Shown here one piece after another: positions 12,426 to 33,752 of a stretch of 64,000 bases of DNA. The notes under the pieces are model-generated. The model was not told the DNA's origin. It did no database searches and saw nothing but the letters and a program-made list of their open reading frames with translations. Source of the stretch: Vicinamibacteria bacterium (GTDB lineage: Bacteria; Acidobacteriota; Vicinamibacteria; Marinacidobacterales; Marinacidobacteraceae); assembly GCA_963668695.2 (NCBI GenBank), contig CAXXLQ010000004.1:544001-608000 (forward strand), given 5' to 3'. Each line of letters begins with the position of its first letter. Positions within the stretch are counted from its first letter, which is position 1. The position numbers were made by a program, and so were the translations under genes.

Positions 12426-12427
12426 CT

Positions 12428-15847: not shown

Positions 15848-15916
15848 GCCCGGAACCGGCGGACTCCCGTCAGATTCCCCGTCAGATTCCCCATCAATTT
15901 CAAGGTCCGGCGCTAA

Positions 15917-16150: not shown

Positions 16151-17628
16151 CTACCGGCGTCCAGCACCCGCTCGAGCGCCGCCCGGGCCTCGCGCGCGTC
16201 CACCTTCCCCCGGAGTTCGCGCATCAGTTGGCCCACGAAGAAACCGATCACCTTCTTCTTGCCGGCGCGGTAGGCGTCCCGGTCCGCGGGGTGTGCGGCG
16301 ACCAGCCGGGTGGCGATCTCGTCCAGCCGGGCTCCGCCGGCCAGGTCGGCGAACCCCAGGTCGCTCATGAGTTCGCGGGCGGCGCGTCCGCTCTCGCACA
16401 TCGCGGCGAAGACCTCGCGCGCGGCGTTTCGCGGCAGTTCCTTCGCCGCCAGCAGATGCATCAGTTCACCGAGCCGTTCCGGCGCTACCGCGAGCTTTCC
16501 GTCCGCTTTCTCACGGGACGCGACTTCAGTGGTAATCCAGCCCGCGGCAACCGTCGCCGCCTGCCCGAGAGGCGAACCGGCGGCCGTCGCGGCGGCCAGC
16601 GTCGCCTCGTAGTAGTCCGCCAATTCGCGGCGCGCGGCAACCCGCTCGGCCTGATCGGCGGCGATCCCATGTTCGCTCCGGTAGCGGGCCGCGCGAGCGT
16701 CCGGGAACTCGGGAAGCTGACGACGCGCCGCATCCAGCAGGCCTTCCGGGAGCCGGAGCGGGGGAAGGTCGGGATCCGGGAAGTAGCGATAGTCGGCAGC
16801 GTCTTCCTTGCTGCGCATGGGCTCCGTGATCCCCCGCGCCTCGTCGTAAAGACGCGTCTCCTGGACGACCGGCCGTCCGGCGGCCAGGAGTTCGCGGTGC
16901 CGTTGCTCTTCGTACTCGAGGGCCCGGTGGAGGAACCGGAAGGAGTTCAGGTTCTTGAGCTCCACCTTGACCCCGTAACGGGGTTCCCCGCGCCGCCGGA
17001 CCGAGATGTTGCCGTCCATGCGGAGGTTGCCCTTCTCCATGTCCGCATCGGACACCCCGCAATAGACGATCCGGCGCCGTACCTCCCGCGCGTAAGCGCA
17101 GGCTTCAGCTACCGAGCGCATTTCCGGGTCACTCACGATTTCGATGAGCGGTACGCCGGCCCGGTTGAAATCCACTCCGCTGCGCCGGTCGGAGCCTCGG
17201 AAACCATCGTGGACCAGCTTTCCGGCGTCCTCTTCGATCTGGATCCGGTTGATCCCGATTGTGCGGTCCACCGCCTCGGAATCCGGGCCCGCGTCCAGCC
17301 GGACGCGGACGGCCCCGGCCTCCGCCAGCGGAAACTCGTACTGGGTGATCTGGTAGCCCTTGGGAAGGTCCGGATAGAAATAGTGCTTCCGTTCGAAGAC
17401 CGACTCTTCGTTGATTTCGCAGTCCAGGGCGAGCCCCGCGAGCACCGCGAGTTCCACCGCTCTCCGATTGGGTACCGGCAACGCTCCCGGGAGGCCGTAG
17501 CACACCGGGCAGAGGTGGGTGTTCGGCGGCGAACCGAACTCGTTCCGGCAGCCACAGAAGAGCTTCGTCCGGGTATCGAGCTGGACGTGCACCTCCAGCC
17601 CGATGACGGTTTCGAAAGCGTCGGTCAT
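16138..17628 (-). CDS. gatB: Asp-tRNA(Asn)/Glu-tRNA(Gln) amidotransferase subunit B
   Basis: VIGLEVHVQL, YFYPDLPKGYQITQ, NRAGVPLIEIV, DYRYFPDPDL. Confidence 0.97.
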   Translation of the reverse strand: MTDAFETVIGLEVHVQLDTRTKLFCGCRNEFGSPPNTHLCPVCYGLPGALPVPNRRAVELAVLAGLALDCEINEESVFERKHYFYPDLPKGYQITQYEFPLAEAGAVRVRLDAGPDSEAVDRTIGINRIQIEEDAGKLVHDGFRGSDRRSGVDFNRAGVPLIEIVSDPEMRSVAEACAYAREVRRRIVYCGVSDADMEKGNLRMDGNISVRRRGEPRYGVKVELKNLNSFRFLHRALEYEEQRHRELLAAGRPVVQETRLYDEARGITEPMRSKEDAADYRYFPDPDLPPLRLPEGLLDAARRQLPEFPDARAARYRSEHGIAADQAERVAARRELADYYEATLAAATAAGSPLGQAATVAAGWITTEVASREKADGKLAVAPERLGELMHLLAAKELPRNAAREVFAAMCESGRAARELMSDLGFADLAGGARLDEIATRLVAAHPADRDAYRAGKKKVIGFFVGQLMRELRGKVDAREARAALERVLDAGSSLW

Positions 17629-17689
17629 CTAGCCCGGATCACGAAACACGCGGCGGAAACCTGCCGGCGCGGCTATTTCCGACACCCAA

Positions 17690-18219
17690 CAGCGGGTGGC
17701 GACAGTCGGCCAGCGTCAACCTGCGGCGCGTAGCGCCGCAGGGGTGGGGTGTGGGGAGGGGTGTCCCCTCCCCACGAAAGACGGTGGCGCGAATCGCGCA
17801 GCGATTCGCGCCACAAGCAGCCTGTAGACAAAGTGACGTGAGCACCGAGAGTGGTGAGGCGCCCCGCTGACAAGGCGCGCGAGGGAGGAGCCCCCACCGG
17901 GAGAACTGGCCCGAGTGTATTTCGACCGAGGCGCAACGATGAGCCACGCGAAGCGGGGCGGCCAGTTCTCCCGGTGGGGGCCAGCCGGGATGTATCGCCG
18001 CTCGCTTCCGGAGCGGGGCGCGAGCACCGCGGAGACCCCGGAGCGAGAGGGACGGGGGACGGGTTCACCCGGCCCCCATCTCTCTTGGCTCGGGAATGCC
18101 GCGTAACTTTGTCCACAGGCTGCTCGCCCGTGGGGAAAGCGCCCCGCCTCCGAAGAACACCCGGGAATGGGTGTGCCTCCCCACGTGGGCGTGATGCGGG
18201 GTGCTTTTTCCACGGGCTG
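17690..18219. repeat. repeat family B copy interrupted by MITE A copy 4
   Basis: shares GGGGTGTGGGGAGGG..CCCTCCCC, GGCGCGAATCGC.CAGCGATTCGCG and GCGGGGTGCTTT..CCACGGGCTG with 57963-58152 and (reverse) 44483-44700. Confidence 0.75.
17818..18122. mobile_element. MITE family A copy 4 (2 cassettes plus an extra ~90 bp insert)
   Basis: ends CAGCCTGTAGACAAAGT...ACTTTGTCCACAGGCTG. Confidence 0.8.
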
Positions 18220-20007
18220 CTAGTTCGCGTACAACGCTTTGATCTGGTCGGTGTACCGCTCCGCCACCACCCGACGCCTCACCTTCATGGTGGGCGTCAG
18301 TTCCCCGCTCTCGATGGAAAAGGCCGCCGTCACCACGGCGATCTTCTTGATTCGCTCGAACGACGCGAACCCTTCGCTCAACCGGTCGATCTCGGACATG
18401 AGGTGCTTCTGCACCCGGTTGTCGCGGGCTATCGCCTCCGGGCCGTCGGCAGGAATTCCCTTGCGTTTGCACCACCGTTCAAGCTGATCGAAGTCGGGCG
18501 CGACCAGCGCCGAGAGGAACGGCTTGCCGTCCCCGACCATTACCAGTTCCGTGATGTACACACTCGACTTGAGCCTCCCCTCGATCGGCTGCGGCGCAAC
18601 GCTCTTGCCGCCGGCGGTGACGAGCAGATCCTTCTTGCGATCCGTGATTCGCAAGAAGCCATCCTCATCAAACTCGCCGACATCTCCGGTGTGAAACCAG
18701 CCGTCCACGACCGCCTTCCGGGTGGCTTCGTCGTTGCCGAAGTACCCCTTCATCACGTTGTGGCCACGGCAGAGGATCTCGCCGTCCGCGGCGATCTTGA
18801 CGTCCACTCCGCGAATGGGAATACCGACCGAGCCGAACCGGAAGCGGTCGAGACGGTTCACGGTAATGACCGGCGAGGTCTCCGTCAGGCCGTAGCCCTC
18901 GATCACGACCCAGCCGGCAGCCAGGAAGAACTCGGCAACGTCGCGGGGGAGCGCCGCGCCCCCGGAGACGAAGAGGCGCACGCGCCCGCCCATCCGGGCG
19001 TGGAGCTTGCTGAACACCAGCTTCGTGGCCACCGCGTACTTCAGTTTCAACCCGACGGAAGGCGTGGTTCCGTCCTGGCGATGGCGGCCGACTTCGTAGC
19101 CGACCGCAAACGCCCAATTGAAGATCTTCTGCTTCAGCGGACTCCCGGCAGCAGCCGACTCGAGGACCCGGTCCCGCATCTTCTCGTAGAAGCGGGGCAC
19201 ACAGGCCATCACGGTGGGATGGACCTCGCCGATGTTCTGGACCAGGGTGTCCATGCTCTCGGCGATGGCGATCGTGACCCCGGCGTGCGGATAGAGGTAG
19301 TGGGCCACCATCCGGGCAAACACGTGGCTGTAAGGCAGCACCGAAATCGCCCGATCCTCCGGAGTGAGCCTCAGCGCTTCGTGGGAGGCCAGGGTGTTCT
19401 GAACGAGATTCTGCTGGCTGAGCATCACCCCCTTCTCCTTCCCCGTGGTTCCGGAGGTGTAGATGATGGTGGCGACGTCATCGCCGGAAACTGCCGCCGC
19501 GAGGCGCTCGGCCGCCCCGGAATCCACCCCGCGAGACCCCTTCCCCGCGTCCGTCACCGCCGACCAGGACCGTGCTCCCGAGCCCGCGACGGGAGGGTCG
19601 AGAGTGAAGATCATCTCGACGTCGGGCAGCGAATCCCGGACCTCGGCGATCTTCGCCTGTTGTTCGGCAGAAGACGCGATGACCACCCTCGCCCCCGAGT
19701 CCCGAATGATGTGGGCGGCCCGCTGCGCGGGGAGCGTCGGGTAGATCGGAACCGTGACCGCACCCAGGATCTGGAGTCCCGCCTCGATGATGAACCACTC
19801 CAGACGGTTCTCCGAAAGGAGCACCACCCGGTCTCCCTTCCGCACCCCCCGCATCGAAAGGCCCACGGCCGCATCCCGCGCAGCATCGAGCCAGTCCGCT
19901 GACGAGAGCTTTTTCCACTCGCCTCCCACCTTGTGGAGGATGGCGTCATCCTTGTTGTGCCGGGCACAGGCGGCGGCAAATAGCTGATTGATGGTCTGCG
20001 CTTCCAT
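18220..20007 (-). CDS. long-chain fatty acid--CoA ligase
   Basis: YTSGTTG.KG, GYGLTET, GWFHTGD.G, DRKK. Confidence 0.93.
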   Translation of the reverse strand: MEAQTINQLFAAACARHNKDDAILHKVGGEWKKLSSADWLDAARDAAVGLSMRGVRKGDRVVLLSENRLEWFIIEAGLQILGAVTVPIYPTLPAQRAAHIIRDSGARVVIASSAEQQAKIAEVRDSLPDVEMIFTLDPPVAGSGARSWSAVTDAGKGSRGVDSGAAERLAAAVSGDDVATIIYTSGTTGKEKGVMLSQQNLVQNTLASHEALRLTPEDRAISVLPYSHVFARMVAHYLYPHAGVTIAIAESMDTLVQNIGEVHPTVMACVPRFYEKMRDRVLESAAAGSPLKQKIFNWAFAVGYEVGRHRQDGTTPSVGLKLKYAVATKLVFSKLHARMGGRVRLFVSGGAALPRDVAEFFLAAGWVVIEGYGLTETSPVITVNRLDRFRFGSVGIPIRGVDVKIAADGEILCRGHNVMKGYFGNDEATRKAVVDGWFHTGDVGEFDEDGFLRITDRKKDLLVTAGGKSVAPQPIEGRLKSSVYITELVMVGDGKPFLSALVAPDFDQLERWCKRKGIPADGPEAIARDNRVQKHLMSEIDRLSEGFASFERIKKIAVVTAAFSIESGELTPTMKVRRRVVAERYTDQIKALYAN

Positions 20008-20499
20008 GGGTCACCTCCCGGCGCCCATCTTAGTCAACGGCTCCCGCGCGCGCAGCCCCCGCACGCGCAGCCACAGCCCAGGATCGGCCGCGGTACCGGA
20101 GTCCACGGCCGACGGAACATCACGGATCGCCGGTCGGAGGGGGCCGCGCTGCCCGGCCGGGAACGCCGGTGTTCACACCAGGAGCGCTGGGCAGTTCTCC
20201 CGGTGGGGCCCTTCAGACCGGCATCGCGGCCGCAGGCCGCGAAACTCCCATCGCTAACCGCGAAAAAGCGCGGGGACGGCTGGGAGCGCCAGTCTTCAGA
20301 CCTGTGTCGCGGCCCAGGGCCGCGAGAGCCCCTCCGTCGACGTTCATGGGTCAGCCCACCCCTATCGGGCCAGATCGCGCGACCAGAAACTTCCCGGTGT
20401 TCGGCGTCTACGCTTTGCGCCGCGTCGTCGCACCCCGACCACTGGGGCAATGCTGGTCCCCACCGGGAGAACCCTCTCCGCGCAGCGTCATCCCCTCCC

Positions 20500-21099
20500 A
20501 TGTTCGAACTCGTCTATCCCGTGGCGCTGTTCGCGGTCTCGATGTCCATTACCCCCGGACCCAACAACGTCATGGTGACCGCTTCGGGGGCGAACTTCGG
20601 ATACCGGCGGACGATCCCGCATCTCCTGGGAATCGGCCTCGGATTCCCGGCAATGGTTTGCGCGGTCGGGTTCGGTCTCGGGGGCGTCTTCGACGCGGTC
20701 CCCGAGGTACACACCGTCCTCCAGTACGTGGGCTCCGCGTACATCCTCTGGATGGCCTGGAAGATCGCAACGGCCAGCGGGATCAGCCGGGCGCAGCAAA
20801 AACCAGGGCGTCCGCTCACCTTCCTGCAAGCCGCCGGCTTCCAGTGGGTCAACCCGAAGGGCTGGGTGGTCGCGATCGGAGCGATCAGCGCATATACGAC
20901 CCTCCAGGGAGATCTCTTTTTCGAGGTCGGGGTGATCACGCTGACCTTCGCCTGCGTGAACTATCCCTGCGCCTCGCTCTGGACCCTCTTCGGGGTCGGA
21001 ATCGGGCGGCTCCTGAAGCGCGGCAGGTGGCTCCGGATCTTCAACGTGGCAATGGGGCTGCTCCTCGTCACCTCCATCGTGCCCCTGTTCGCCCGCTGA
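20500..21099 (+). CDS. LysE family translocator
   Basis: SITPGPNN, FQWVNPK.W. Confidence 0.92.
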   Translation: MFELVYPVALFAVSMSITPGPNNVMVTASGANFGYRRTIPHLLGIGLGFPAMVCAVGFGLGGVFDAVPEVHTVLQYVGSAYILWMAWKIATASGISRAQQKPGRPLTFLQAAGFQWVNPKGWVVAIGAISAYTTLQGDLFFEVGVITLTFACVNYPCASLWTLFGVGIGRLLKRGRWLRIFNVAMGLLLVTSIVPLFAR

Positions 21100-21262
21100 G
21101 CCAAAGGAGCGGTCAAGAGTCGGGATCCTGGCCCGGCGCGAGGGGTCCGCCGGCGATCCAGCGCTGGAGACATCCGTTCTCCTCCGGGCCCCTTACCCCT
21201 TCCTCGGGGACATCTCTCCGTGGGAGGGCGTAGCGAGCGGTCTGTTAGGATGCCGGGCTCAT

Positions 21263-22198
21263 ATGGCCACGGTGGAGGGGCGCGGGAATCCGGGCGCGAG
21301 CGCCGACAACCGTCCCGGTCCGCAGGTCCCCAAGGGCCTGTTCGTTCGCTGCGACGGATGCTCGGAGATCGTCTACGGACGGGCGCTCCGCGAGAACCTT
21401 GAGGTCTGTCCGCGTTGTGACTTCCACATGCGGCTCGGGGCGCGCGACCGCATCGAGATGCTCGTGGACGAGGGTGTGTATCGGGAGATCTCGGGGGGCA
21501 TCCGATCCAACGATCCGCTCCGCTTCCGGGACCGGGTGGACTACTGTGACCGGCTCCGCAAGGGAGCCGAAATCACCGGCCTCGACGACGCCATCATCGT
21601 AGTGCGCGCCGAGATCGAGCGGACTCCGGTGGTTCTCGCCGTCATGGAATACGCCTTCATCGGCGGCAGCATGGGCGTCGTGGTCGGCGAGGAGATTGCC
21701 CGGGCGGTGGAAACCGCTTGCGACGCACGCATCCCGCTGATCGTGGTCTCCTGTTCGGGCGGCGCCCGGATGCAGGAAGGCGCGCTTTCGCTGATGCAGA
21801 TGGCGAAGATTGCGTCGGCGCTCGCCGTACTCGACGACGCGGGAGTGCCCTACGTCTCGCTGCTTACCCATCCCACCACCGGGGGAGTCACGGCCAGCTA
21901 CGCGATGCTCGGCGATCTGAACCTCGCCGAGCCCGGAGCCCTGATCGGCTTCGCCGGCCCTCGCGTGATCCAGCAGACGATTCGCGGCGAACTGCCTCCG
22001 GGCTTCCAGCGTTCCGAATTCCTGCTCGACCACGGGATGCTCGACCGGGTGGTCCACCGCCGTGAGCTTCGCGGCGTGCTGGGCGGCCTCCTGCGATTCA
22101 TGTACGAGCCCGCCGGAGCGACGGCTTCAGCGGAGGAGGACACCGCCGCCAAGGTGCAGACCGCACCGGAGCCGGCGCTGGTCCGCGCCGTCCGATAG
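21263..22198 (+). CDS. accD: acetyl-CoA carboxylase carboxyltransferase beta subunit
   Basis: Zn finger C..C...C..C, GGSMG.VVGE, SGGARMQEG, PTTGGV.AS. Confidence 0.96.
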   Translation: MATVEGRGNPGASADNRPGPQVPKGLFVRCDGCSEIVYGRALRENLEVCPRCDFHMRLGARDRIEMLVDEGVYREISGGIRSNDPLRFRDRVDYCDRLRKGAEITGLDDAIIVVRAEIERTPVVLAVMEYAFIGGSMGVVVGEEIARAVETACDARIPLIVVSCSGGARMQEGALSLMQMAKIASALAVLDDAGVPYVSLLTHPTTGGVTASYAMLGDLNLAEPGALIGFAGPRVIQQTIRGELPPGFQRSEFLLDHGMLDRVVHRRELRGVLGGLLRFMYEPAGATASAEEDTAAKVQTAPEPALVRAVR

Positions 22199-22224
22199 AG
22201 CGGGCGCTCCATCCCGCTCCTGAA

Positions 22225-22451
22225 CAGCCGGTGGACAAAGTCGCGTGGCGTTCGGCCGGCGATCCATCCCGGCTGAACCACGCCGCTTCGCGTCGTTCAT
22301 CGTTCCGCTTCGGCCGAAATACAGCCAGGCCAGTTCTCCCGGTGGGGGCTCCTCCCTCGCGCGCCTTGTCAGCCGGGTTGTCAGCCGGGCGCCTCCCCCC
22401 CACCGGGAGAACCGCGGGCCTCGGCGCTCACGTCACGTTGCCCACCGGCTG
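22225..22451. mobile_element. MITE family A copy 5 (227 bp: 2 cassettes plus a 12-bp duplication), between accD and folC
   Basis: TIR CAGCCGGTGG...CCACCGGCTG; flanks TGAA / TTAA. Confidence 0.85.
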
Positions 22452-22471
22452 TTAACAGCCGGATCGGTACC

Positions 22472-23884
22472 ATGCAGTACGAGGACGCGCTCGCGTTCCT
22501 CCGGGAACGTGAACAGTTCCACGTCAAGGTAGGTACCCGGAACATCCGGCTGCTCGCCAAGGCGCTCGGCCACCCCGAACGCCGGTTCCCCTCCGTGGTG
22601 GTGGCGGGGACGAACGGGAAGGGGTCCACGGTCGCCATTCTGGACTCGATCCTGCGCGCCCACGGACTGCGGGTGGGACGTTTCACCTCCCCGCATCTCG
22701 TATCCATCAACGAGCGCATCCTGGTGAACGGCCGTCAGCTTCCGAATGAGGAGTTCGCCGACCTGGTGGGGGCGATCGCGTCGGCTGCCCGCGGCCTGCT
22801 TCCGGACCAGCAGCCATCGTTCTTCGAAACGATCACCGGGGCCGCTTTCCTGGCGTTCGCCCGGCACGGGCTCGACGCCGCGGTCTTCGAGGTGGGGATG
22901 GGCGGACGCTGGGACGCCACTACCGCGACCGACGCTCCGCTCGGCCTCGTGACCCGCATCGCGCTCGATCACGAACGCTATCTCGGTCGCACCGTCGCCG
23001 AGATCGCCGGCGAAAAAGGGGCGGTGGCCCGTCCCGGGGGAGAACTGCTGATCGCCCCGCAGGAACCGGAGGCCGCCGCGGTGCTCCACGAGAGCGCCCG
23101 TAAGCGGGGCGCCCGTCCGCGGGACCTGGCCGTCGAAACCGAGACCGACTTCACGATCCTCCGTGCCGGAGCGACGGGTCGGCTCCTTACGCCCGAAGCC
23201 ACTTACGACGATCTCTGGCTCCCGCTCCCGGGGCGCCACCAACTCGACAATCTGGCGCTCGCGGTCCGGGGGGCGGAACGGTTCTTCGCGCGCGAGGAAC
23301 TGGGAACGCTCGACCCCGTGCGGGTCCGTCAGGGCGTCTCCGCGGTCCGCTGGCCGGGCCGGCTCGAGTGGTTGCCCCGAGAGGGCGCTCGTCCACGCGT
23401 GCTCCTCGATGCCGCCCACAATCCCAGCGGCGCCGAGCGGCTGGCCGACTACCTGGGTTCCCTCGGCCGGAACGGCCGGCGGGTGCTGGTCTTCGGAGCG
23501 ATGCGCGACAAACGCGTCGAGGGGATGTTGCCCCCCCTGGCGCCGCACTTCCAGCGGGTGGTGCTGACCGCCGCCGCCAACCGCCGGGCCCTCTCCGCCG
23601 CTGACCTGCGAGTGCGAGCAACCAGCGAAGCGGTGTTTTCCGCGAACGGAACCCGCTGCGAGGCCGTGGAGCAGGTCCCGGACGCGCTCGCGCGCGCCTT
23701 CCGGCTCGCCGGTGAGTCAGGCGAGGTCGTGATCGCCGGATCCATCTACCTCCTCGGGGACGCTCTCAAGACGCTGCGATCGGAGGAAGGCGACGGCATT
23801 GACCAGAGCGTGATCGAGATGCCGGTGGTCCCGACGGATCGGGTCAGCCAGGCGGGAACCGATCGACAGACCTCAGCGGCCTGA
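22472..23884 (+). CDS. folC: folylpolyglutamate synthase/dihydrofolate synthase
   Basis: VAGTNGKGS, FTSPHL..NERI, EVGMGGR.DAT, WPGR, DAAHNP, GSIYL.G. Confidence 0.95.
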   Translation: MQYEDALAFLREREQFHVKVGTRNIRLLAKALGHPERRFPSVVVAGTNGKGSTVAILDSILRAHGLRVGRFTSPHLVSINERILVNGRQLPNEEFADLVGAIASAARGLLPDQQPSFFETITGAAFLAFARHGLDAAVFEVGMGGRWDATTATDAPLGLVTRIALDHERYLGRTVAEIAGEKGAVARPGGELLIAPQEPEAAAVLHESARKRGARPRDLAVETETDFTILRAGATGRLLTPEATYDDLWLPLPGRHQLDNLALAVRGAERFFAREELGTLDPVRVRQGVSAVRWPGRLEWLPREGARPRVLLDAAHNPSGAERLADYLGSLGRNGRRVLVFGAMRDKRVEGMLPPLAPHFQRVVLTAAANRRALSAADLRVRATSEAVFSANGTRCEAVEQVPDALARAFRLAGESGEVVIAGSIYLLGDALKTLRSEEGDGIDQSVIEMPVVPTDRVSQAGTDRQTSAA

Positions 23885-23929
23885 CCGCCGTACACTCCCC
23901 GCGCCTGAACCGCCCGTGTTCTCCATCTG

Positions 23930-25699
23930 ATGCGCCTTTCCCACCATTTCGGCCTCACGCTCCGTGAAGCGCCGGCCGGCATTGAAGCCGAGAGCCACCG
24001 GTTCCTGCTGCGGGCCGGTTTCATCCGGCAACTCGGGCAGGGTCTGTATTCCTACCTGCCGCTCGCGCACCGATCCATCACCCGGATCGAGAACATCCTG
24101 CGCGAGGAAATGAACCGGATCGGCGGGCAGGAAATGACCATGCCGGTCGTCCACCCGGCCGAAATCTGGCGCCGGTCGGGTCGCTACGACGCCGTCGGCC
24201 CCGAAATGGCGCGGTTCAAGGACCGGAAGAACAGTGACCTCGTCCTCGCCATGACCCACGAGGAGGTGGTGGCCGACCTCTGCCGGACCGAAATCCGTTC
24301 CCACCGGCAGCTTCCGCAGCTCGTCTACCACATCCAGACCAAGTTCCGGGACGACCCCCGCCCCCGGGCCGGACTCATCCGGGTCCGCGAGTTCACCATG
24401 AAGGACTCCTACACCCTCGACCACGACGCCGCGGGTCTGGCTCGGCAGTACCGCGCCCACTACGAGGCGTACTTCCGCATCTTCGGCCGGTGCGGACTGC
24501 CCACCATCGCCGTCGGCTCCGACGTCGGGATGATGGGTGGCAGCCAGGCGCACGAGTTCATGTACCTCACGCCGGTGGGCGAGGACACCCTGGTGCTCTG
24601 CGACGCCTGCGGCTATTCCGCCAACCGCCAGATCGCCCGCTTCTCGAAGGCGCCGGCGGAACCCGAAACGCCGCTTCCCCTCGAACGGGTCGCGACGCCG
24701 GGAGCCCGGACGATCCGCGAGCTGGCGGAGTTCCTCAAGGTCCCGGCGGCGCGGACCGCGAAGGCCGTGTTCCTCACCGCCGGCCTCGACGGCGGCGCCC
24801 GCGAGGAACTGGTGGTCGCCATCGTCCGCGGCGACATGGACGTCAACGAGACGAAGCTCGCGAACGCGGTCGAGGCTTCCTGGCTCCGTCCGGCGGAGGA
24901 CGAGGCGATCCGGAGCGCCGGCGCTACCCCGGGATACGCCTCCCCGATCGGGCTCAGCTCGGGCACGGTGGTGGTGGACGATGGGGTCCCGGCATCACCG
25001 AACCTGGTGGCGGGGGCGAACGAGCAGGACGTGCACTTCCGGAACGTGAACGCGGGACGGGACTACGACCCCGGACTGGTAACCGACATCGCGGTGGCGG
25101 AGGACGGCCATTCCTGCGTGGAATGCGGAGAGCCGCTCCGCACTTCCCGCGGCGTCGAGGTCGGCAATATCTTCCAGCTCGGCACCCGCTACGGGGACGC
25201 CGCCGGGGCTCGCTTCCTCGACGAATCGGGAGCCGAACGCCCTATCTGGATGGGCTCCTACGGCATCGGCTCGGGACGCCTGCTGGCATGTGTAGCGGAA
25301 GAACATCACGACGAAAACGGCCTCTGCTGGCCGATGAGCGTCTCTCCCTATGACGTTCACCTCATTCCGCTCGTCGGACGTTCGGCCGAGCAGGATGAAG
25401 CCGGACGGCAGGCGGAACGACTGCACGACAGTCTTGAGGAAGCGGGATTCGAAGTACTGCTCGACGACCGGGACGAGCGCGCGGGGGTGAAGTTCGCGGA
25501 CGCCGATCTGATCGGGATTCCGCTGCGGGTGGTGATCTCCCGCCGGTCCCTGGACCGGGGCGGCGTGGAAGTTCGGGTGCGGGGAGGGGAATCCGCGGAA
25601 ATCGTGCCGCTGGAGCACCTCGCGGAAGCCCTCGCATCACGCCGGGCGGAACTCCTGGGCCGCATCGAGGCAGCGGTCCGGATCCCGGAATTCGGCTGA
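23930..25699 (+). CDS. proS: proline--tRNA ligase (with editing domain)
   Basis: THEE, QTKFRD.PRPR.GLIR.REF.MKD.Y, EVGNIF.LG, GVKF.DADLIGIP. Confidence 0.96.
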   Translation: MRLSHHFGLTLREAPAGIEAESHRFLLRAGFIRQLGQGLYSYLPLAHRSITRIENILREEMNRIGGQEMTMPVVHPAEIWRRSGRYDAVGPEMARFKDRKNSDLVLAMTHEEVVADLCRTEIRSHRQLPQLVYHIQTKFRDDPRPRAGLIRVREFTMKDSYTLDHDAAGLARQYRAHYEAYFRIFGRCGLPTIAVGSDVGMMGGSQAHEFMYLTPVGEDTLVLCDACGYSANRQIARFSKAPAEPETPLPLERVATPGARTIRELAEFLKVPAARTAKAVFLTAGLDGGAREELVVAIVRGDMDVNETKLANAVEASWLRPAEDEAIRSAGATPGYASPIGLSSGTVVVDDGVPASPNLVAGANEQDVHFRNVNAGRDYDPGLVTDIAVAEDGHSCVECGEPLRTSRGVEVGNIFQLGTRYGDAAGARFLDESGAERPIWMGSYGIGSGRLLACVAEEHHDENGLCWPMSVSPYDVHLIPLVGRSAEQDEAGRQAERLHDSLEEAGFEVLLDDRDERAGVKFADADLIGIPLRVVISRRSLDRGGVEVRVRGGESAEIVPLEHLAEALASRRAELLGRIEAAVRIPEFG

Positions 25700-25714
25700 C
25701 GTACGGAGGGTTAA

Positions 25715-25893
25715 CAGCCTGTGGATAAAGTGACGTGAGCACCGAGGCCGGTGAGGCGCCCGGCTGACAAGGCGCGCGAGGGAGGAATACCGAGTGTATT
25801 TCGACCGATGTGCAACGCAGAGCGTCGCGAAGCGGCGCGGTTCAGCCGGGATGCATCGCCGGTCGAATGCCGCGTGACTTTGTCCACAGGCTG
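25715..25893. mobile_element. MITE family A copy 6, minimal cassette-free form (179 bp)
   Basis: TIR CAGCCTGTGGA.AAAGT.ACG; flanks TTAA / TTAG; no 19-nt cassette. Confidence 0.88.
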
Positions 25894-25908
25894 TTAGCAG
25901 GGCAGCCA

Positions 25909-27324
25909 GTGCTCCAACCCGTTTCCGTCCCGCTGATCGTCCTCGCACTGCTTTCGGCCGGCTGCCTCTACGGACTGATCGTTCGACCTCTCTGGCAGCG
26001 GCGCCGAGAGCGGCGGAACTCCTACGCGTTCCACGACGCGCAGGGCCGGCTGGCCATCCAGCCTTCGGCGTTCCAGCTCCTGAAACCAACGAGCACCGCC
26101 GACCTGCTGATGGTGGACCCGCTCGTTCAGGAAGCGATCCTCCAGGAGACCGAGCGGAGCGGTACCGACCCGTGCGACGTGCTGGTGCAGGCGCGGGGTT
26201 ACGCCCGGGAGATCGTTCCGTCGCTGAGCGCCGGCTTCTACTTCCGCCTCATCCACGGACCCGTGAAGCGATGGATGCTCCGGCTCTTCCGGGTCCGGGT
26301 GCGGTACCTGGACGAGGAAGCGATCGTGCGGGCGGCCAGAACCTCAACGCCGGTCTTTGTCCTGAATCACCGCAGCAATCTCGACTACGTGATCGCCGCC
26401 ACTTCGCTCGCCGACCGGGCCATCCTCTCGTTCGCGGTGGGCGAATGGGCGCGTTACTGGCCGCTTGAAGGGCTGCTCCGCGCCCTCGGCGGCTTCTTCG
26501 TCCGACGGGGGTCGGGCAATCCGCTCTACCGGGCCGTCCTCGCCGCCCACGTCAAGACCGCGACTCGCGCCGGAGTCCCGCAGGCGTTCTTCATCGAGGG
26601 CCGCTTTTCCGATGACGGGAGGCTGGGGAGTCCCCGCCTCGGCCTGCTCGACTACGCCGTCCGGGCCTTCGATCCGGAGTCGCGGCGCGATGTGGCGTTC
26701 GTCCCGGTGGCGGTGAACTACGACCGGGTCATCGAGGACAAGAACCTCCAGATCATGAAGGCTCAGGGCAAACGCGCCACCCGGACCGGATCGTGGCGAG
26801 CTACCGCCGCCTTTCTCGGCCACCAGCTCTGGCTGCGCCTCAACCGCCGCTGGCGGCCCTTCGGCTACGCCACCCTCAGCGTGGGCGAACCGGTATCGCT
26901 CAGGGACTGGCTCGCGAGCCGGGACTTCGACCCCCGGGAAGCCGACCGCGGGGAACGCTTCCAGGAGGTCGGATGTCTCGCCGAACACCTCATGCGGCGC
27001 ATCGCCGAAATCATGCCGGTGCTGCCGGTCCCGCTGATGGCGACGGTGATCCGGAACGGGGGAGAGGAGGGAATCACGCGGGCCGAGGCGCGCGCCGCCG
27101 CCTTCAAAATCCTCGAGACGCTCGCGGTCCGCCCCGGCGAGCCGGACATCCCTCCCGAGGATTGGGAGCCGGCGGTCGAACTTGGGCTCCAGCTCCTGAT
27201 CCAGCGGCAGATGGTGAAAGCCGAGCGGGAAAGGCTCACCATCGTCGAGCCGCGCCGCCACTTCGTGAACTACTACGCGAACAGCATCGCGCACCTGGTG
27301 CCCGAACGGGCCGGGGTTCCGTAG
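25909..27324 (+). CDS. glycerol-3-phosphate/phospholipid acyltransferase (PlsB/PlsC-like)
   Basis: NHRSNLDY (HX4D), GGFFVRR, FFIEG..S..G, FVPV..NYDRV. Confidence 0.85.
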   Translation: MLQPVSVPLIVLALLSAGCLYGLIVRPLWQRRRERRNSYAFHDAQGRLAIQPSAFQLLKPTSTADLLMVDPLVQEAILQETERSGTDPCDVLVQARGYAREIVPSLSAGFYFRLIHGPVKRWMLRLFRVRVRYLDEEAIVRAARTSTPVFVLNHRSNLDYVIAATSLADRAILSFAVGEWARYWPLEGLLRALGGFFVRRGSGNPLYRAVLAAHVKTATRAGVPQAFFIEGRFSDDGRLGSPRLGLLDYAVRAFDPESRRDVAFVPVAVNYDRVIEDKNLQIMKAQGKRATRTGSWRATAAFLGHQLWLRLNRRWRPFGYATLSVGEPVSLRDWLASRDFDPREADRGERFQEVGCLAEHLMRRIAEIMPVLPVPLMATVIRNGGEEGITRAEARAAAFKILETLAVRPGEPDIPPEDWEPAVELGLQLLIQRQMVKAERERLTIVEPRRHFVNYYANSIAHLVPERAGVP

Positions 27325-27349
27325 GAATCCCGCCGAGTTTGGGGCGGCT

Positions 27350-28582
27350 TCAGGGAAGCCTCATCCTTGGCAGTCGCCCGTAGGTGAGCGTCCGCCACGC
27401 CCATTCCAGCGGCCCGTAGGAAAACCGGCGCAGCCAGATCGGCGACAGCCACAACTGGAGCGCCCACACCGCGAAGACGACCAGGAGCTGCTGGTACCTC
27501 TCCACGCGGCCGTAAAGACCCAGCCCGTGGCCGTAGAAGATCGAGGTGCAGAGCACCGTCTGGAGCAGGTAGTTCGTGAAGGCCATCCGTCCGACCGCGG
27601 CCAACCGCGCCTGGAGGTCCGGGAGGATTCCCCGCCGGACGGCGAGCATCACCAGGCCCAGATACCCGAGCGCCATCGGGACACATCCCCACGTGTTGAA
27701 CAGCTCACCGAAGAACATCGAGCGCTGCCAGCTCCAGTCGCCGGCAAAGTTCCACCAGATGCCGAAAGCGACGAGCGGCGCGCCGGCGAGCAGTCCAACC
27801 GCGGTGAGTCTCCGGTAGAAGCGATCGTCCTTCGCGGCGCTCAGGACTCCCCATTTGTAGAGCGCCATGCCGATCAGCATCAGGCCGCCGCAGAACCAGA
27901 GGACGAAGAACGGCACCGTGCCGAGATGGATGCCGAGCGCCTGCTCCATCCGCAGCGGCTGCTGCCCGCTCCACCCGCCTCGGTAAGCCGCGATCTCGGC
28001 GTCGAGTGCGGACGAATCCGGCGCCCACTCCATCTCGACCTCCTGGGTTACCTCCTCCGGAAGGCCCGGAACCAGCAGGGCGGCGCCGACAAGCAGAAAC
28101 ACCAGGCTCGTCACCGAGAAGAGCGCCGACCCGGCGACCAGCAGCGTCCGCGGCCGCCAGCGGCGCGCCAGATACACCAGACAACCGCAGACCGCGTACG
28201 GCACCAGGATGTCGCCGACCCAGAGGAGGTAAGCGTGGGCCAGTCCGAACGCCAGCAGCCAACCCATGCGGCGGTAGTGCCAGACCGCCGGCCGCCCGCC
28301 CCGGGCCTCGATCCGGTCGGCGAAGAGACAGATTCCGGCGCCGAACAGAAGGGAAAAGAGCGTGAGGAACTTCTGGCTGGCGAGCAGTTGACTCAGGGTC
28401 CAGACGCCAAGGTTGATCCCCGAGAGGTCGCCCCAGGCCGTCGGGTTGCCGTACGCCGCGATCGGCATCGCGAAGAGCTGGATGTTCATCACCAGGATGC
28501 CGAGCAGCGCGAAGCCGCGCAGCACGTCCAGGCTCTTGATCCGGGAGCCGACTTCGGTCGGCTTCGCCGGAGGGTCGCTCAC
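27350..28582 (-). CDS. DUF418 domain membrane protein
   Basis: RI.SLD.LRGFALLGIL.MNI, GDIL..YA, GRMAFTNYL.Q, GPLEW.WR. Confidence 0.9.
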   Translation of the reverse strand: MSDPPAKPTEVGSRIKSLDVLRGFALLGILVMNIQLFAMPIAAYGNPTAWGDLSGINLGVWTLSQLLASQKFLTLFSLLFGAGICLFADRIEARGGRPAVWHYRRMGWLLAFGLAHAYLLWVGDILVPYAVCGCLVYLARRWRPRTLLVAGSALFSVTSLVFLLVGAALLVPGLPEEVTQEVEMEWAPDSSALDAEIAAYRGGWSGQQPLRMEQALGIHLGTVPFFVLWFCGGLMLIGMALYKWGVLSAAKDDRFYRRLTAVGLLAGAPLVAFGIWWNFAGDWSWQRSMFFGELFNTWGCVPMALGYLGLVMLAVRRGILPDLQARLAAVGRMAFTNYLLQTVLCTSIFYGHGLGLYGRVERYQQLLVVFAVWALQLWLSPIWLRRFSYGPLEWAWRTLTYGRLPRMRLP

Positions 28583-29316: not shown

Positions 29317-30240
29317 TCAGCCGAGCAGGCTCAGATCGGCACGCCCGTCGCGGATCGGGGGACACCAGAAGTACGCGCCGGTCACCGGCCTCGTGAACCG
29401 GAACAGGTGATCCACGATCCGGTCCGAAGCCCCGACCATCCGGGAGAGGTGGTATTCGAAAGCGTCGAGCGTGTTGCCGAAGGCTACGAACACGAGACCG
29501 GCCCGCTGCGCGTCCGCCCAGGGCATGGAGCGGCGGAGCAGAAAGGCGGGCGGGTCGGGGGCTTCCTGTTCGGTGCGTTTCACGTGGGCCGCGTCCGGCC
29601 CGTCCTCGAGTTCCACATTGTCGCTCTTTCGCCGGCCGATGATGTGGTCTTGTGTCTGCGAGGAAAAGGATTCGAAGCGGTCGAGGTCGTGGACCCACTG
29701 CTGCACCGCCACGAAGGAGGACCCGTCGAGCCCGGGGCCGTGGCCGGCGACCAGCGCCGCCTCCGCGGCGTCATCTCCCTTCGGGTTCTCGGTTCCGTCC
29801 TCGTAGCCGGTGAGATCGAGGCCGGTCCGGTAGCGAAAGGCGTCCACCACCGAGTCCAGGACGAAGGCGCCGGAAAGCGCCTTTTCCACCCGGCGCGTCT
29901 CGTGGACGAGTTCGCCCCGTTCCTCGGCCCGGAGCCAGAGCCAGAGTTCGGCCGGGGTCGCAGGAACGCTGAATCCGGGTCCGCTGGACGCCGGGACGTC
30001 CCGAAGTCCGGGGACCGCGGCCCCCAGCTCGCGCACCAGCGACTGGCCCAGGCCGAAGACGAGCGGCAGTCCGGGATGGGGATCGGCGAGCCGCTCGAGG
30101 GCTTCGCGCGGGCTGGGCGCCGAGGGGCGGCGGCGGAAGGTGAGGTAGCGCGCGTGGGACGGGATTTCGGCCAGCACGCCGGGCTGGGGAAGGGACGACT
30201 GCGATCCGGATTGGGGTCCCCTGTTCATTCGTTCGTTCAT
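29317..30240 (-). CDS. Dyp-type peroxidase
   Basis: DLTGY.DGTENP, Q.W.HDL, IIGR, AHV, LLRRS.PW. Confidence 0.92.
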   Translation of the reverse strand: MNERMNRGPQSGSQSSLPQPGVLAEIPSHARYLTFRRRPSAPSPREALERLADPHPGLPLVFGLGQSLVRELGAAVPGLRDVPASSGPGFSVPATPAELWLWLRAEERGELVHETRRVEKALSGAFVLDSVVDAFRYRTGLDLTGYEDGTENPKGDDAAEAALVAGHGPGLDGSSFVAVQQWVHDLDRFESFSSQTQDHIIGRRKSDNVELEDGPDAAHVKRTEQEAPDPPAFLLRRSMPWADAQRAGLVFVAFGNTLDAFEYHLSRMVGASDRIVDHLFRFTRPVTGAYFWCPPIRDGRADLSLLG

Positions 30241-30311
30241 TCTCTTGTTCAAAGAAAGGTAGCGTGCTGACTACGCTCGGGTCTCTCGCGACGGCGTCCG
30301 TCGGCTGGACG

Positions 30312-32072
30312 AACATGTCGCTCTAGCGGAGTCTCCCGACCCGAACATGTCGCTCTAGCGAAGCCGGCCGGAATCAACATGTCGCTCTAACAGGGTCTCC
30401 CGCCCCGAACATGTCGCTCTAGCGAAGCCGGCCGGAATCAACATGTCGCTCTAGCAGGGTCTCCCGACCCGAACATGTCGCTCTAGCGAAGCCGGCCGGA
30501 ATCAACATGTCGCTCTAGCGGGGTCTCCCGCCCCGAACATGTCGCTCTAGCGAAGCCGGCCGGGATCAACATGTCGCTCTAGCGGGTCTCCCGACCCGAA
30601 CATGTCGCTCTAGCGAAGCCGGCCGGAATCAACATGTCGCTCTAGCGGGTCTCCCGCCCCGAACATGTCGCTCTAGCGAAGCCGGCCGGAATCAACATGT
30701 CGCTCTAGCGGGGTCTCCCGCCCCGAACATGTCGCTCTAGCGAAGCCGGCCGGAATCAACATGTCGCTCTAGCGGGTCTCCCGACCCGAACATGTCGCTC
30801 TAGCGAAGCCGGCCGGAATCAACATGTCGCTCTAGCGGGTCTCCCGACCCGAACATGTCGCTCTAGCGAAGCCGGCCGGAATCAACATGTCGCTCTAGCG
30901 GGTCTCCCGACCCGAACATGTCGCTCTAGCGAAGCCGGCCGGAGTCAACATGTCGCTCTAGCGGGTCTCCCGCCCCGAACATGTCGCTCTAGCGAAGCCG
31001 GCCGGAATCAACATGTCGCTCTAGCGGGTCTCCCGACCCGAACATGTCGCTCTAGCGAAGCCGGCCGGAATCAACATGTCGCTCTAGCGGGTCTCCCGCC
31101 CCGAACATGTCGCTCTAGCGAAGCCGGCCGGAATCAACATGTCGCTCTAGCGGGGTCTCCCGACCCGAACATGTCGCTCTAGCGAAGCCGGCCGGAATCA
31201 ACATGTCGCTCTAGCGGGGTCTCCCGCCCCGAACATGTCGCTCTAGCGAAGCCGGCCGGAATCAACATGTCGCTCTAGCGGGTCTCCCGCCCCGAACATG
31301 TCGCTCTAGCGAAGCCGGCCGGAATCAACATGTCGCTCTAGCGGGGTCTCCCGCCCCGAACATGTCGCTCTAGCGAAGCCGGCCGGAATCAACATGTCGC
31401 TCTAGCAGGGTCTCCCGCCCCGAACATGTCGCTCTAGCGAAGCCGGCCGGAATCAACATGTCGCTCTAGCGGGGTCTCCCGCCCCGAACATGTCGCTCTA
31501 GCGAAGCCGGCCGGAAGGGTCGCTCTAGCAGGGTCTCCCCCGTCGCTCGCCTCTGGAACGCTTAACATGTCGCTCTAGCGAAGCCGGCCGGAATCAACAT
31601 GTCGCTCTAGCGGGGTCTCCCGCCCCGAACATGTCGCTCTAGCGAAGCCGGCCGGAATCAACATGTCGCTCTAGCCGGGGTCTCCCGCCCCGAACATGTC
31701 GCTCTAGCGAAGCCGGCCGGAATCAACATGTCGCGAACTAGCGAAGCCGGCGGGGGTCTCCCGCCCCGAACATGTCGCTCTAGCGAAGCCGGCCGGAATC
31801 AACATGTCGCTCTAGCGGGTCTCCCGGTCCGAACATGTCGCTCTAGCGAAGCCGGCCGGAATCAACATGTCGCACTAGCGGGGTCTCCCGGTCCGAACAT
31901 GTCGCTCTAGCGAAGCCGGCCGGAATCAACATGTCGCTCTAGCGGGTCTCCCGGCCGAACATGTCGCTCTAAGCGAAGTCGCTCTAGCAGAAACATGTCG
32001 CTCTAGCGAAGGTCTCCCGGCCGGAATCAACATGTCGCACTAGCGGGGTCTCCCGGCGGGGAACATGTCGCA
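30312..32072. repeat. non-coding tandem array: core AACATGTCGCTCTAGC alternating with two fixed spacers, period ~63-64 bp, about 27 units
   Basis: read directly; spacers (G/A)GGGTCTCCCG(A/C)CCCG and GAAGCCGGCCGGAATC; irregular at ~31515-31565, ~31735 and after ~31960. Confidence 0.97.
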
Positions 32073-32273
32073 TTGGGGAAGCGCTCTCGCCCGCATCCGG
32101 CGGGCGGTGCCGGCGTGAATGCCCCCACCGGGAGGACTGGCCGGCGTTCCCAATTCGGCCTTCCCGATTCGGCGGCGCGATCGGGGTGAGGACCGTGGGC
32201 CCGCAGACCCCTTTTGGTCACCAACTGCCCGGAGGTCGGCGGTTCCCTCGCTTCGGTAGAGTCCCTGAACGCC

Positions 32274-33752
32274 ATGCTCTCCCGACGCTTTCTCATTCCG
32301 CTCTTGCTCGTTTTCGCCGGCGGCCCCGCCGCGGCGCAGGACACGCCGATCTTCACCGAGGACTTCCCTGCCGCCGAGTTCCAGGCGCGCCGCAGGGCCG
32401 TCATGGACGCTCTCGGACCCGGGGCGATTGCGCTATTGCAGGGGGCGCCGTCCCCCCTCGGGTACATCCGCTTTCGGCAGACCAATTCCTTCTACTACCT
32501 GAGCGGAGTGGAGACGCCGCACGCCTACCTGGTGCTGAACGGCACGACGGGCCACTCGTCGCTCTACCTGCCGCCGCAGGACGACCGCCGCGAATCGTCA
32601 GAGGGACGCCTCCTGACTTCCGACGACGCGGACCTCGCCCGGGAAAAGACCGGCGTGGCCGAGGTGCACCCGAACTGGAAACTGAGCGACCACCTCGCCC
32701 GCCTCGCCTGGAGTCCGAATCCGCCGGTGGTCCACACCCCGCTCGCCCCCGCCGAACTCGCGGCGATGAGCCGGGACCTGGCGACCCGCGGCAACTCCGA
32801 CATCGCGAACGACCCCTGGGACGCGCGCCCCTCGCGCGAAGCGATCTTCGTGTCCCGCCTCGAGGGACGGTTCCCGCGGCTGGAGATTCGCGACCTGACC
32901 CCGGTGCTCGACCGGGCGCGGCTCGTGAAGAGCGAACGCGAGATCGCCCTCATCACCAAAGCCACCCGCCTTTCCGGGTTCGCGCTCATGGAGGCCATGC
33001 GCTCCACCGCCCCCGGGATCTACGAACGGGAACTCGACGCCGTCGGGAAGTTCCTCTTCTACCGGGACGGCGCCCAGTCGGACGCCTACTACTCGCTGGT
33101 GGCGACGGGAACGAACGCCTGGTATCCGCACTATCACCGGGGGGCGAGCCGGCTCGGCGACGGCGAGTTGATCCTGATGGACTACGCGCCCGACGTCGGC
33201 TACTACACGAGCGACGTGACCCGCATGTGGCCGGTGAACGGGGTCTGGAGCGAGTGGCAGCGCGATCTCTACGGCTTCTATCTCGCCTGCTACCAGGCGA
33301 TCCTCGACGCCATCCGGCCCGGGGATGTCGCCACCGTAATGGGCGATGCCGCCACCCGCATGGAGGAGATCGTGCGGGATTGGCCGTTCACGAAACCCCA
33401 CTACCGGCCGGCGGCGGAAGCCTTCGTGGCCGCCTACCGCCGCCGCGCCGCCGGCCGCCCGAACGGGGTGGGTCACGGTGTGGGAATGGCGGTCCACGAT
33501 GTCGGCAATGCCGACGGGACGCTCACCCCGGGCATGGTATTCACCATCGAGCCGCAGTTCCGGGTGCCCGAGGACCGGATCTACATCCGCCTGGAGGACG
33601 TCATCGTCGTCACCGAAGACGGCGCCGAAAACATCTCGGAGTTCGTTCCGATGGACATGGACGCCATCGAGGCGCTGATGGCGGAACCCGGGCTGCTGGA
33701 CCGCTACCCGAGTCCCCTCGACGCCTTCCCGGACCCCGGCGGACCGCGGTGA
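32274..33752 (+). CDS. Xaa-Pro aminopeptidase (M24) with signal peptide
   Basis: FRQ...FYYLSG.E.P, R.VKS..EI, D......Y.SDVTR, GHGVGM.VHD, TIEP, RLED. Confidence 0.9.
   Translation: MLSRRFLIPLLLVFAGGPAAAQDTPIFTEDFPAAEFQARRRAVMDALGPGAIALLQGAPSPLGYIRFRQTNSFYYLSGVETPHAYLVLNGTTGHSSLYLPPQDDRRESSEGRLLTSDDADLAREKTGVAEVHPNWKLSDHLARLAWSPNPPVVHTPLAPAELAAMSRDLATRGNSDIANDPWDARPSREAIFVSRLEGRFPRLEIRDLTPVLDRARLVKSEREIALITKATRLSGFALMEAMRSTAPGIYERELDAVGKFLFYRDGAQSDAYYSLVATGTNAWYPHYHRGASRLGDGELILMDYAPDVGYYTSDVTRMWPVNGVWSEWQRDLYGFYLACYQAILDAIRPGDVATVMGDAATRMEEIVRDWPFTKPHYRPAAEAFVAAYRRRAAGRPNGVGHGVGMAVHDVGNADGTLTPGMVFTIEPQFRVPEDRIYIRLEDVIVVTEDGAENISEFVPMDMDAIEALMAEPGLLDRYPSPLDAFPDPGGPR

Follow-up and report, generated by a model that had tools for sequence, protein, structure and literature searches.

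Several described systems share features with the element analysed here, a non-coding tandem-repeat array in a 64,000-nucleotide window (the whole stretch of DNA that was analysed, G000:C4:544001-608000) of a 4.1-Mb, 67% G+C, four-contig metagenome-assembled Vicinamibacteria genome ('Ca. Marinacidobacterium'). The mycobacterial interspersed repetitive units and variable-number tandem repeats (MIRU/VNTR) of mycobacteria are non-coding tandem units of tens of base pairs, found at dispersed intergenic loci and polymorphic in copy number. Alpha-satellite DNA is organised in higher-order units of a 171-bp monomer, in which the CENP-B box is conserved while the monomer drifts, and its families form a 'library'. 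The sopC locus of plasmid F is a tandem-repeat centromere, made of direct tandem repeats that each carry a conserved site. Repetitive extragenic palindromes and bacterial interspersed mosaic elements (REP/BIME) are abundant short intergenic repeats, described in the accessible part of one study as preferred insertion targets of particular insertion sequence (IS) elements (PMC1525189). Non-coding satellites on the kilobase scale that combine higher-order units, a protein-box-like constrained core, and phasing in whole turns belong to the textbook picture of eukaryotic chromosomes and are rarely documented in bacteria.

The array in the window has the properties of a MIRU/VNTR-type minisatellite: a non-coding, intergenic tandem unit of 63-64 bp, the same unit at many dispersed loci (six in this genome), and a copy number that differs between relatives. 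With a probability of roughly 0.5, we read it as part of a MIRU-like minisatellite family with a bipartite core that is held by constraint and would most likely be a phased protein-binding site. The source genome is labelled G000, other G numbers are genomes of relatives, and the array in the window is labelled a574. Its 16-bp core, AACATGTCGCTCTAGC, occurs 52 times at ≤2 mismatches between 30312 and 32044, with 48 copies exact and all on the + strand, compared to 0 copies expected by chance (100 shuffles). An earlier reading of the stretch (the sequence-only reading) had counted about 55 cores; 52 stand at this threshold, and a few further degenerate ones (e.g. 32057-32072) bring the total near ~55. 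The 63-64-bp unit is a dimer of two ~32-bp subunits, each consisting of a 16-bp core and a 15-17-nt GC-rich spacer, and in the unit listing the cores alternate strictly with spacer A (GGG(G)TCTCCCG[A/C]CCCG) and spacer B (GAAGCCGGCCGGAATC). The array is interrupted at 31503-31563 and becomes more irregular toward its right end. Its parts, all on the + strand, are as follows.

30284..30311, +: left edge, a decayed unit remnant (..TCTCGCGACGGCGTCCGTCGGCTGGACG), retained in G001 and G004
30312..31516, +: regular part, 19 units of 63 bp (core, spacer A, core, spacer B), from the unit listing and Tandem Repeats Finder (TRF; period 63, 19.0 copies, 97% match)
31517..31563, +: disrupted segment, a truncated core and non-repeat filler, read directly (77-bp core-to-core gap)
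31564..32045, +: decayed part, ~7 units of 64 bp with indels, fused units, and variant cores (AACATGTCGCACTAGC), from TRF (31564-32026, period 64, 7.0 copies, 87% match, 8% indels)
32057..32072, +: terminal degenerate core (AACATGTCGCATTGGG), read directly; the same remnant occurs in G001

The remnant at the left edge, aligned by eye to the family unit, appears to keep the family spacer motif GTCGGCTGG. The open reading frame (ORF) list contains no ORF of ≥80 aa inside 30317-32026. The core count, TRF, and ORF list thus bear out the earlier description of an ORF-free array built from one core and two alternating spacers, the unit listing places most of the variation in spacer A and the decay at the right end, as had been noted, and Pfam matches confirm that the array lies between divergent genes for a Dyp-type peroxidase (dyp) and an aminopeptidase.

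The general form of the core, AACATGTCGC-NN-TAGC, defines what we call family 1. Its 304 cores on contig C4 fall into six distinct arrays.

a309, C4 309 kb, +: 19 cores
a574 (the array in the window), C4 574 kb, +: 52 cores
a976, C4 976 kb, -: 86 cores
a1574, C4 1574 kb, +: 40 cores
a2553, C4 2553 kb, +: 64 cores
a2887, C4 2887 kb, -: 43 cores

The longest of these arrays spans 2.9 kb with its 86 cores. Each alternates ~15-nt and ~17-nt spacers (of the GGGATCTGSCGGGGG and GGGRTCGGCTGGRGYCG types) that are homogeneous within one array and different between arrays, with the a574 pair being the most divergent, and the neighbouring genes vary from array to array. When two cores in tandem were searched for in one genome per GTDB species, 22 stretches were found, all in four assemblies titled 'Candidatus Marinacidobacterium sp.' or 'Vicinamibacteria bacterium', and the tandem core had 0 matches in viral contigs and 0 in JGI metagenome contigs. 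Tandem pairs of a relaxed core (ACATGTMGCNNTAG) are present in 14 of 15 congeners, with the exception being a genome that is 66% complete, and in 0 of 12 genomes from six sister genera of the family; the exact core is found in 0 of 16 genomes from other families of the order. The number of tandem pairs per genome is 2 in G010 (a two-contig assembly), 261 in G001, and 279 in G000. The search for the core across the genome and its relatives, which the sequence-only reading had proposed, therefore revealed a multi-locus, genus-wide family: family 1 is a genus-specific non-coding satellite. Because it is restricted to one Vicinamibacteria genus, homology to mycobacterial MIRU is unlikely. Sequencing runs that hold the dyp-aminopeptidase locus include several labelled as sponge metagenome. 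A survey of the literature on 'Marinacidobacterium', bacterial satellites, and tandem repeats of sponge symbionts, with subscription journals and supplements outside its scope, returned no comparable description.

The core is far more constrained than the sequence around it, as a protein-loading array would predict. Across 781 units from many arrays and species, compared position by position, core positions 2-10 and 13-16 are mostly 98-100% conserved (some 90-97% in other species), positions 11-12 are conserved at 45-67%, and spacer positions at 45-100%. The same pattern is found within single arrays. In seven arrays, units were identified at ≤5 mismatches, split into alternating classes, and compared with their class consensus, excluding sub-classes of <4 units and dropping units of odd length (3/52, 2/31, 0/18, 13/88, 1/39, 2/64, and 1/42). 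The 14 conserved core positions differ from the consensus in 27 of 3850 comparisons (0.70%), core positions 11-12 in 82 of 550 (14.9%), and the spacers in 213 of 4373 (4.9%). Divergence of the core is lower than that of the spacers in 7/7 arrays, most clearly in the G001 array at the dyp locus, which has 0/322 differences in the core and 44/368 in the spacers. Two blocks are conserved, ACATGTCGC, with the palindrome ACATGT at its centre, and TAGC. They lie on either side of the two free bases, and their centres are ~10 bp or about one helical turn apart, which is the pattern that a protein touching two successive major grooves would be expected to leave.

The cores are also phased on the helix. 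Whole-genome TRF found 145 tandem regions of ≥250 bp, covering 107 kb and including coding repeats, REP clusters, and a clustered regularly interspaced short palindromic repeat (CRISPR) array. Among them are three further satellites, which have the same kind of GC-rich spacer as family 1 and other cores.

Family 1, core AACATGTCGC-NN-TAGC: 6 arrays, 304 cores, spacing 31/33 bp (a574 31-32/32)
Family 2, core GCATGCGTCTAT: 6 arrays (G000:C4 172393, 422945, 975843, 1173385, 3551664, 3734734), 126 cores, spacing 32 bp
Family 3, core GATATCGCACCCAGTTCC: 3 arrays (G000:C4 833110, 1174040, 1487283), 34 cores, spacing 32 bp
Family 4, core ACTCCACGCTGGAGC: 6 arrays (G000:C4 122070, 424253, 2093439, 2741073, 3276751, 3896065), 216 cores, spacing alternating 21/32 bp

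Together the four families comprise 680 cores in 21 arrays, with summed spans of ~21.5 kb or ~0.55% of the G000 genome, and the core of each contains a short palindrome or inverted repeat (ACATGT, GCATGC, GATATC, and CTCCA-N3-TGGAG). The families have a nested distribution, with family 1 in 14/15 congeners, family 2 in 6/15, and family 4 in 2/15, and families 1, 2, and 4 are found in 0/12 genomes outside the genus. Some satellites also adjoin one another: family 2 lies next to family 3 at 1.173 Mb, for example, and next to family 1 at 0.976 Mb. The most frequent spacings are 31 bp (112 cases) and 33 bp (105) in family 1, 32 bp in family 2 (89) and family 3 (28), and 21 bp (86) and 32 bp (75) in family 4, where the two differ by one helical turn. 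The core spacings, of 21 or 31-33 bp, correspond to two or three helical turns. A wedge model of DNA that assumes a set of dinucleotide parameters puts the 63-64-bp unit at 6.01-6.06 turns and the 53-bp unit at 4.98-4.99 turns, and when random genomic segments of 48-75 bp were tandemised in silico it predicted coiling only at 53, 63-64, and 74 bp. The helical phasing of the cores, which the sequence-only reading had suggested for a574, is thus seen in families 1 and 4 alike and is close to whole turns in the model.

In the reading that we favour, the core would be the recognition site of a sequence-specific, probably dimeric, DNA-binding protein, and the arrays would load many copies of this protein along one face of the helix. 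Slippage during replication and unequal recombination would be the most likely causes of array growth and homogenisation. In the three sister satellites, one common scaffold would have been re-coded for different cores, and the shape of the DNA or nucleoprotein would make the arrays preferred landing sites for IS21-type elements, with the IstB helper selecting by shape. The protein-loading array of the sequence-only reading survives in this general form, since core constraint and phasing are as it predicted, and loses its centromere/iteron and repressor-sponge variants. The satellite differs from MIRU/VNTR in having far longer arrays (up to 86 cores and 2.9 kb), a two-subunit higher-order unit, a bipartite constrained core with whole-turn phasing, stop codons that leave no small overlapping ORFs, and sister families with the same spacer and a changed core. 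With alpha-satellite and its CENP-B box it shares higher-order units, concerted evolution, a short conserved box, a library of families, and transposon insertions; the differences are its location on a bacterial chromosome, its 32/64-bp rather than 171-bp unit, its lack of a centromere role, and a box binder that is only putative. The setting, with four related families in a 4-Mb symbiont genome, and the species series described below, with dyp-locus arrays of 0, 5, 31, and 52 cores and nested family ages, make the birth, expansion, and core replacement of a satellite traceable. There is also a practical side, as such arrays break short-read assemblies and will be taken for CRISPRs or overlooked by annotation.

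Several observations weigh against a phased protein-binding site. Finding units through their similarity to the core (≤3-5 mismatches) inflates core conservation, although it cannot explain the free positions 11-12, and the Fisher p-values of the within-array test (p <0.05 in 6/7 arrays) overstate independence because units of one array share ancestry. Since indels occur less often than substitutions, the period may have been conserved by inheritance alone. The wedge model depends on its assumed parameters, and the bending it predicts for the real units does not exceed that of random units with an equal period (34th-95th percentile), a574 being nearly straight at the 95th percentile; the model therefore supports phasing and not intrinsic curvature, and we rejected curvature as an explanation. 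No solitary core was found outside the arrays, where all 21 occurrences of ACATGTCGC (~23 expected) lack a following NNTAGC. Some solitary sites are usual for a regulator that controls a regulon, and the absence of any operator-like core outside the arrays argues against the repressor sponge. No DNA-binding gene recurs next to the arrays among 20 annotated neighbour proteins of the six G000 arrays and 60 from other genomes. Finally, tandem pairs range from ~280 to 2 per genome within the genus and the dyp locus is empty in three congeners, so any function would be dispensable or independent of dosage.

The history of the array can be followed at the dyp-aminopeptidase locus, which has the following features around the repeats.

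29317..30252, -: Dyp-type peroxidase gene (Pfam Dyp_perox_C, E 2.1e-37), with 59 bp from its start codon to the first core
32081..32159, strand not assigned: copy of a REP-like dispersed element (~70 bp) unrelated to the satellite (123 BLAST matches genome-wide, in both orientations)
32214..33752, +: Xaa-Pro-type aminopeptidase gene (Pfam Peptidase_M24 and AMP_N, E 1.2e-41 and 6.9e-17)

In congeners the same locus holds arrays of different size or none.

G000: 52 cores
G001: 31 cores, flanking nucleotide identity ~94.5%
G004: 5 cores, flanking nucleotide identity ~92%
G008: 0 cores, flanking nucleotide identity ~90.5%
G009: 0 cores, flanking nucleotide identity ~84%
G010: 0 cores

The five units of G004 already have the locus-specific spacer types, and therefore the array was seeded before G000, G001, and G004 split and was expanded later. 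Judged by the Pfam names of neighbours (the QueG, PAPS-reductase/SNF2, CCDC90-like/HipA, Iso_dh, and HMGL loci), G001 appears to share all six G000 arrays, G004 at least four of them, and G008 three, and in general the arrays of G004 and G008 are smaller than those of G000 and G001. Decay has no common polarity: a574 decays at its 3' side, and four other arrays are more heterogeneous at their 5' side. The arrays grow, shrink, and homogenise locally, which accounts for spacers peculiar to each array and for copy numbers that are several-fold apart between species. The REP-like element (GGGAACGCCGGCCAGTCCTCCCGGTGGGGG...CCGGCAC...) has hundreds of genomic copies, lies within ~150 bp of 4-5 of the six arrays, and also builds clusters of its own with periods of 71, 90, and 148-185 bp. 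It accounts for an apparent flank common to arrays, where the right flank of a574 resembled the left flank of another array.

This turnover is also what would be seen if the satellite were selfish or neutral, without benefit to the host, and the core were kept because amplification or homogenisation needs it, for example as a nicking or recombination hotspot such that only units with an intact core multiply. We regard this main rival as possible, though doubtful. It explains the 100-fold range of copy number within the genus and the missing solitary sites equally well, and the lack of a partner gene, the 52/31/5/0 cores at the dyp locus, the array edges decayed without common polarity, and the nesting of the sister families in the manner of a satellite 'library' are all consistent with it; the larger arrays in G000 and G001 than in G004 and G008 would fit a genome-wide change in turnover rate. 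However, slippage or exchange of whole units should not spare 14 bases while the two between them vary at 14.9%, and several arrays persist at orthologous loci in species that are ~8-10% apart in flanking DNA. No bacterial enzyme known to us amplifies tandem units by way of a 16-bp site, or reads 14 bases and ignores the two between them.

The arrays are also sites of transposon insertion. In G001, a 2,493-bp IS21-family element (IstA, 470 aa with Mu-transpos_C_2; IstB, 265 aa), with ends TGTAGGAGAC... and ...TCTCTTGACA and sub-terminal repeats, lies inside arrays that it splits. Four dissected insertions have 5-bp target duplications (GAACC, ACATG, CATGT, and GCTGG), and these differences, together with the occurrence of both orientations relative to the cores, indicate independent insertion events. 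Of 14 near-identical copies in G001, five are in family 1, six in families 2/3, and one in a family-4-like array, giving 12/14 in satellites, and the remaining two are in a REP-type tandem repeat and in unique DNA; flanks (G001 L056-L075) were assigned by pattern for family 1 and by eye for the other families. Two copies, L063 and L074, face opposite ways and have swapped flanks (family 3|family 2 and family 2|family 3), possibly the trace of an inversion mediated by the IS. G000 has no intact copy (best match 30% identity). Solo right ends of the element nevertheless occur inside or beside arrays in genomes without an intact element, including one inside a2553 (G000:C4 ~2554150-2554300) in which the motif GTGCG.AA.AGT.GGTGTCTC is duplicated, and also at L011, L012, and L015. 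A duplicated motif that precedes small arrays in three congeners, and is found at one locus only in G000, had been considered as a leader and is this same right end. In addition, an IS630-like element (DDE_3 fragment; C4 2886555-2887222) ends at the TA inside the CTAG of the terminal core of a2887, and a 123-bp copy of the same end lies on the other side of this array (2888576-2888698). Mutator, DDE_Tnp_1, and rve transposase genes adjoin other arrays.

Insertion at varying positions in four satellite families suggests that the target choice of the IS21-like element is regional or shape-based, not sequence-based. This is similar to REP/BIME in that particular IS elements insert preferentially into abundant short intergenic repeats, but REPs are hairpin palindromes in alternating orientation with site-specific IS elements, whereas the units here run head-to-tail and the insertion positions vary. 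According to the accessible part of a structural study of IS21 IstA/IstB, IstB decamers curve the target DNA, and selection of flexible or curved sites based on structure was proposed (PMC11208146). The accumulation of the G001 element in phased satellites is in line with such a preference; satellites are not described as targets in that part of the study, and the preference here is deduced from 14 genomic copies. This active IS21-type element and its pile-up in the arrays offer a natural substrate for learning how IstB-type AAA+ helpers choose targets by DNA shape.

These insertions allow two broader proposals. The first extends the favoured reading to a four-satellite 'satellitome', in which each core would be read by its own protein and the tracts would be chromosomal landmarks that channel IS21 and IS630 transposition into harmless DNA. 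If true, bacteria would have an equivalent of the protein-boxed eukaryotic satellites that act as safe havens for transposons, but we consider the proposal unlikely. The second, to which we give still less credence, is that the arrays are under selection as landing pads, taking up transposable elements in DNA where they do no harm, with the CTAG in each core attracting IS630-type elements and the phased, deformable DNA attracting IS21-type elements. It draws on the 12/14 IS21-like copies in satellites that make up just ~0.55% of the genome (the share in G000, not in G001), the IS630-like end at the core of a2887 in a genome where CTAG outside the arrays is at 0.30 of expectation, the transposase genes beside other arrays, and the solo IS21 end inside a2553. 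However, an insertion bias is an effect and no proof of a selected function, the largest arrays are in G000, which has no intact IS21-like copy, and only 4 IS630-like ends exist in G000.

The alternative that the array is transcribed into a repetitive non-coding RNA, acting as a sponge or as the precursor of processed small RNAs, was raised by the sequence-only reading and appears improbable. The divergent flanking genes make read-through or divergent transcription possible, and two-unit segments fold somewhat better than shuffles (z = -0.95 to -3.08). These folds, however, rest on ACAUGU self-pairing of neighbouring cores and differ between arrays and strands, with no pairing shared between the spacers of different arrays. 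Rfam 15 gave 0 matches at E≤1 on both strands of 29500-33000, 0 sigma-70-like promoters were found in 29900-32500, and the arrays have neither a shared leader nor a polarity. In the metatranscriptome run X20, one 215-nt contig maps in dyp, with 10 differences, and nothing maps at the junction with the array; X20 consists of contigs only and the other metatranscriptome runs had no share, so this says nothing about an absence of transcription.

In form, the array resembles sopC-type centromeres and iterons, with direct tandem repeats that each hold a conserved site of ~16 bp at a fixed helical phase. We nevertheless judge it very improbable that it is a chromosomal centromere, iteron, or replication-control array (sopC/parC-like), as the sequence-only reading had envisaged. 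No Cas, Par, Rep, or reverse transcriptase (RT) families occur among the 20 neighbour proteins of the six G000 arrays or the 60 from other genomes, so that the ParB and RT neighbours that the sequence-only reading proposed to look for are missing from this set. Unlike sopC, the arrays occupy six chromosomal loci with a copy number that falls from 52 to 0, the dyp locus being empty in three congeners, and the core is not a full palindrome. GC skew has its minimum at ~1.08 Mb, where a parB gene lies, and its maximum at ~3.06 Mb, which are likely the origin and terminus, and the six scattered loci are unrelated to either. ParB_N genes number two per genome in 25 of 28 genomes and three in the other three (two congeners and one sister-genus genome); because the count is alike in genera with and without the satellite, it does not track the satellites. 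The two ParB_N genes of G000, at C4 1089361 (the skew minimum) and 3084073 (near the skew maximum), are conserved across the whole family. An orientation of the arrays by replichore was also rejected, as their strands do not follow the skew-defined replichores.

Further candidates were set aside. The array is not a CRISPR, with a 16-bp core and two spacer types repeated throughout rather than 23-55-bp repeats with unique spacers, no Cas family among the annotated neighbours, no leader (only the IS21 end at one locus), and no polarity. It is not a REP/BIME cluster, because all cores of one array are on one strand and the core holds only a 6-bp palindrome. Restriction-site avoidance finds no support, with ACATGT at 1.02 of expectation, and the G-quadruplexes and GATC/Dam sites seen in other arrays are absent from a574. 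A possible origin of the core from an IS630 terminal repeat (10/16 matches with a gap, aligned by eye) was judged to be chance.

Logan contigs from four runs were used to assess the reality of the array, by placing on them the dyp gene and the initial ~96 bp of repeat. The summed word depth, which is not a copy number and includes the other arrays too, rises ~30-130-fold at the array edge in runs from three different studies.

X1: from 155 in dyp to 7,377-16,468 in the array
X2: from 211 to 11,881-27,588
X9: from 6.9 to 197-536

Contigs of X1 and X2 run from dyp into the array. Raw data from independent samples contain the repeat at high abundance. Contig C1 (144 kb) duplicates C4:304-421 kb at 99.5% identity, and the array at 309 kb was assembled in both C1 and C4 with an identical 559-bp span and the same units. 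The regularity of the array alone speaks for an assembly expansion, or for an integrated rolling-circle or RT concatemer of a 63-nt template as the sequence-only reading had suggested, but we leave these hardly any chance given the depth jump and bridging contigs, the array assembled twice identically, the independent assemblies of two other species that carry arrays with their own variants at the same locus, the lack of an RT gene among the annotated neighbours, and the 0 matches of the tandem core in viral contigs.

Contigs C3 and C2 match parts of C4 at 92-99.7%, and the listed contamination of the genome is 9.3%; C1, C2, and C3 are probably strain variants binned together. Two family 1 arrays lie in apparent defence islands, a976 (969724-985021) with an SNF2 helicase with DUF3670, a PAPS-reductase-like protein, and a methyltransferase-HNH protein, and a1574 (1568071-1581345) with a Type ISP restriction-modification enzyme. 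A conventional CRISPR-like array unrelated to the satellites is present at G000:C4 3280876-3283455 (period ~61, repeat GGTCCATCCCCGCGCGTGCGGGGGAA...). Tandem arrays with a period of 351 bp, which is divisible by 3, at C4 2804007-2826733 (64.5 copies) and 3762099-3769062 (19.8 copies) presumably encode giant repetitive proteins, and a 30-bp tandem array of 36 copies (TCCCCGGCGTGGTCCCCGCGATACGGAGTA) at C4 2329596-2330693 falls outside the 32-bp scaffold and its whole-turn phasing.

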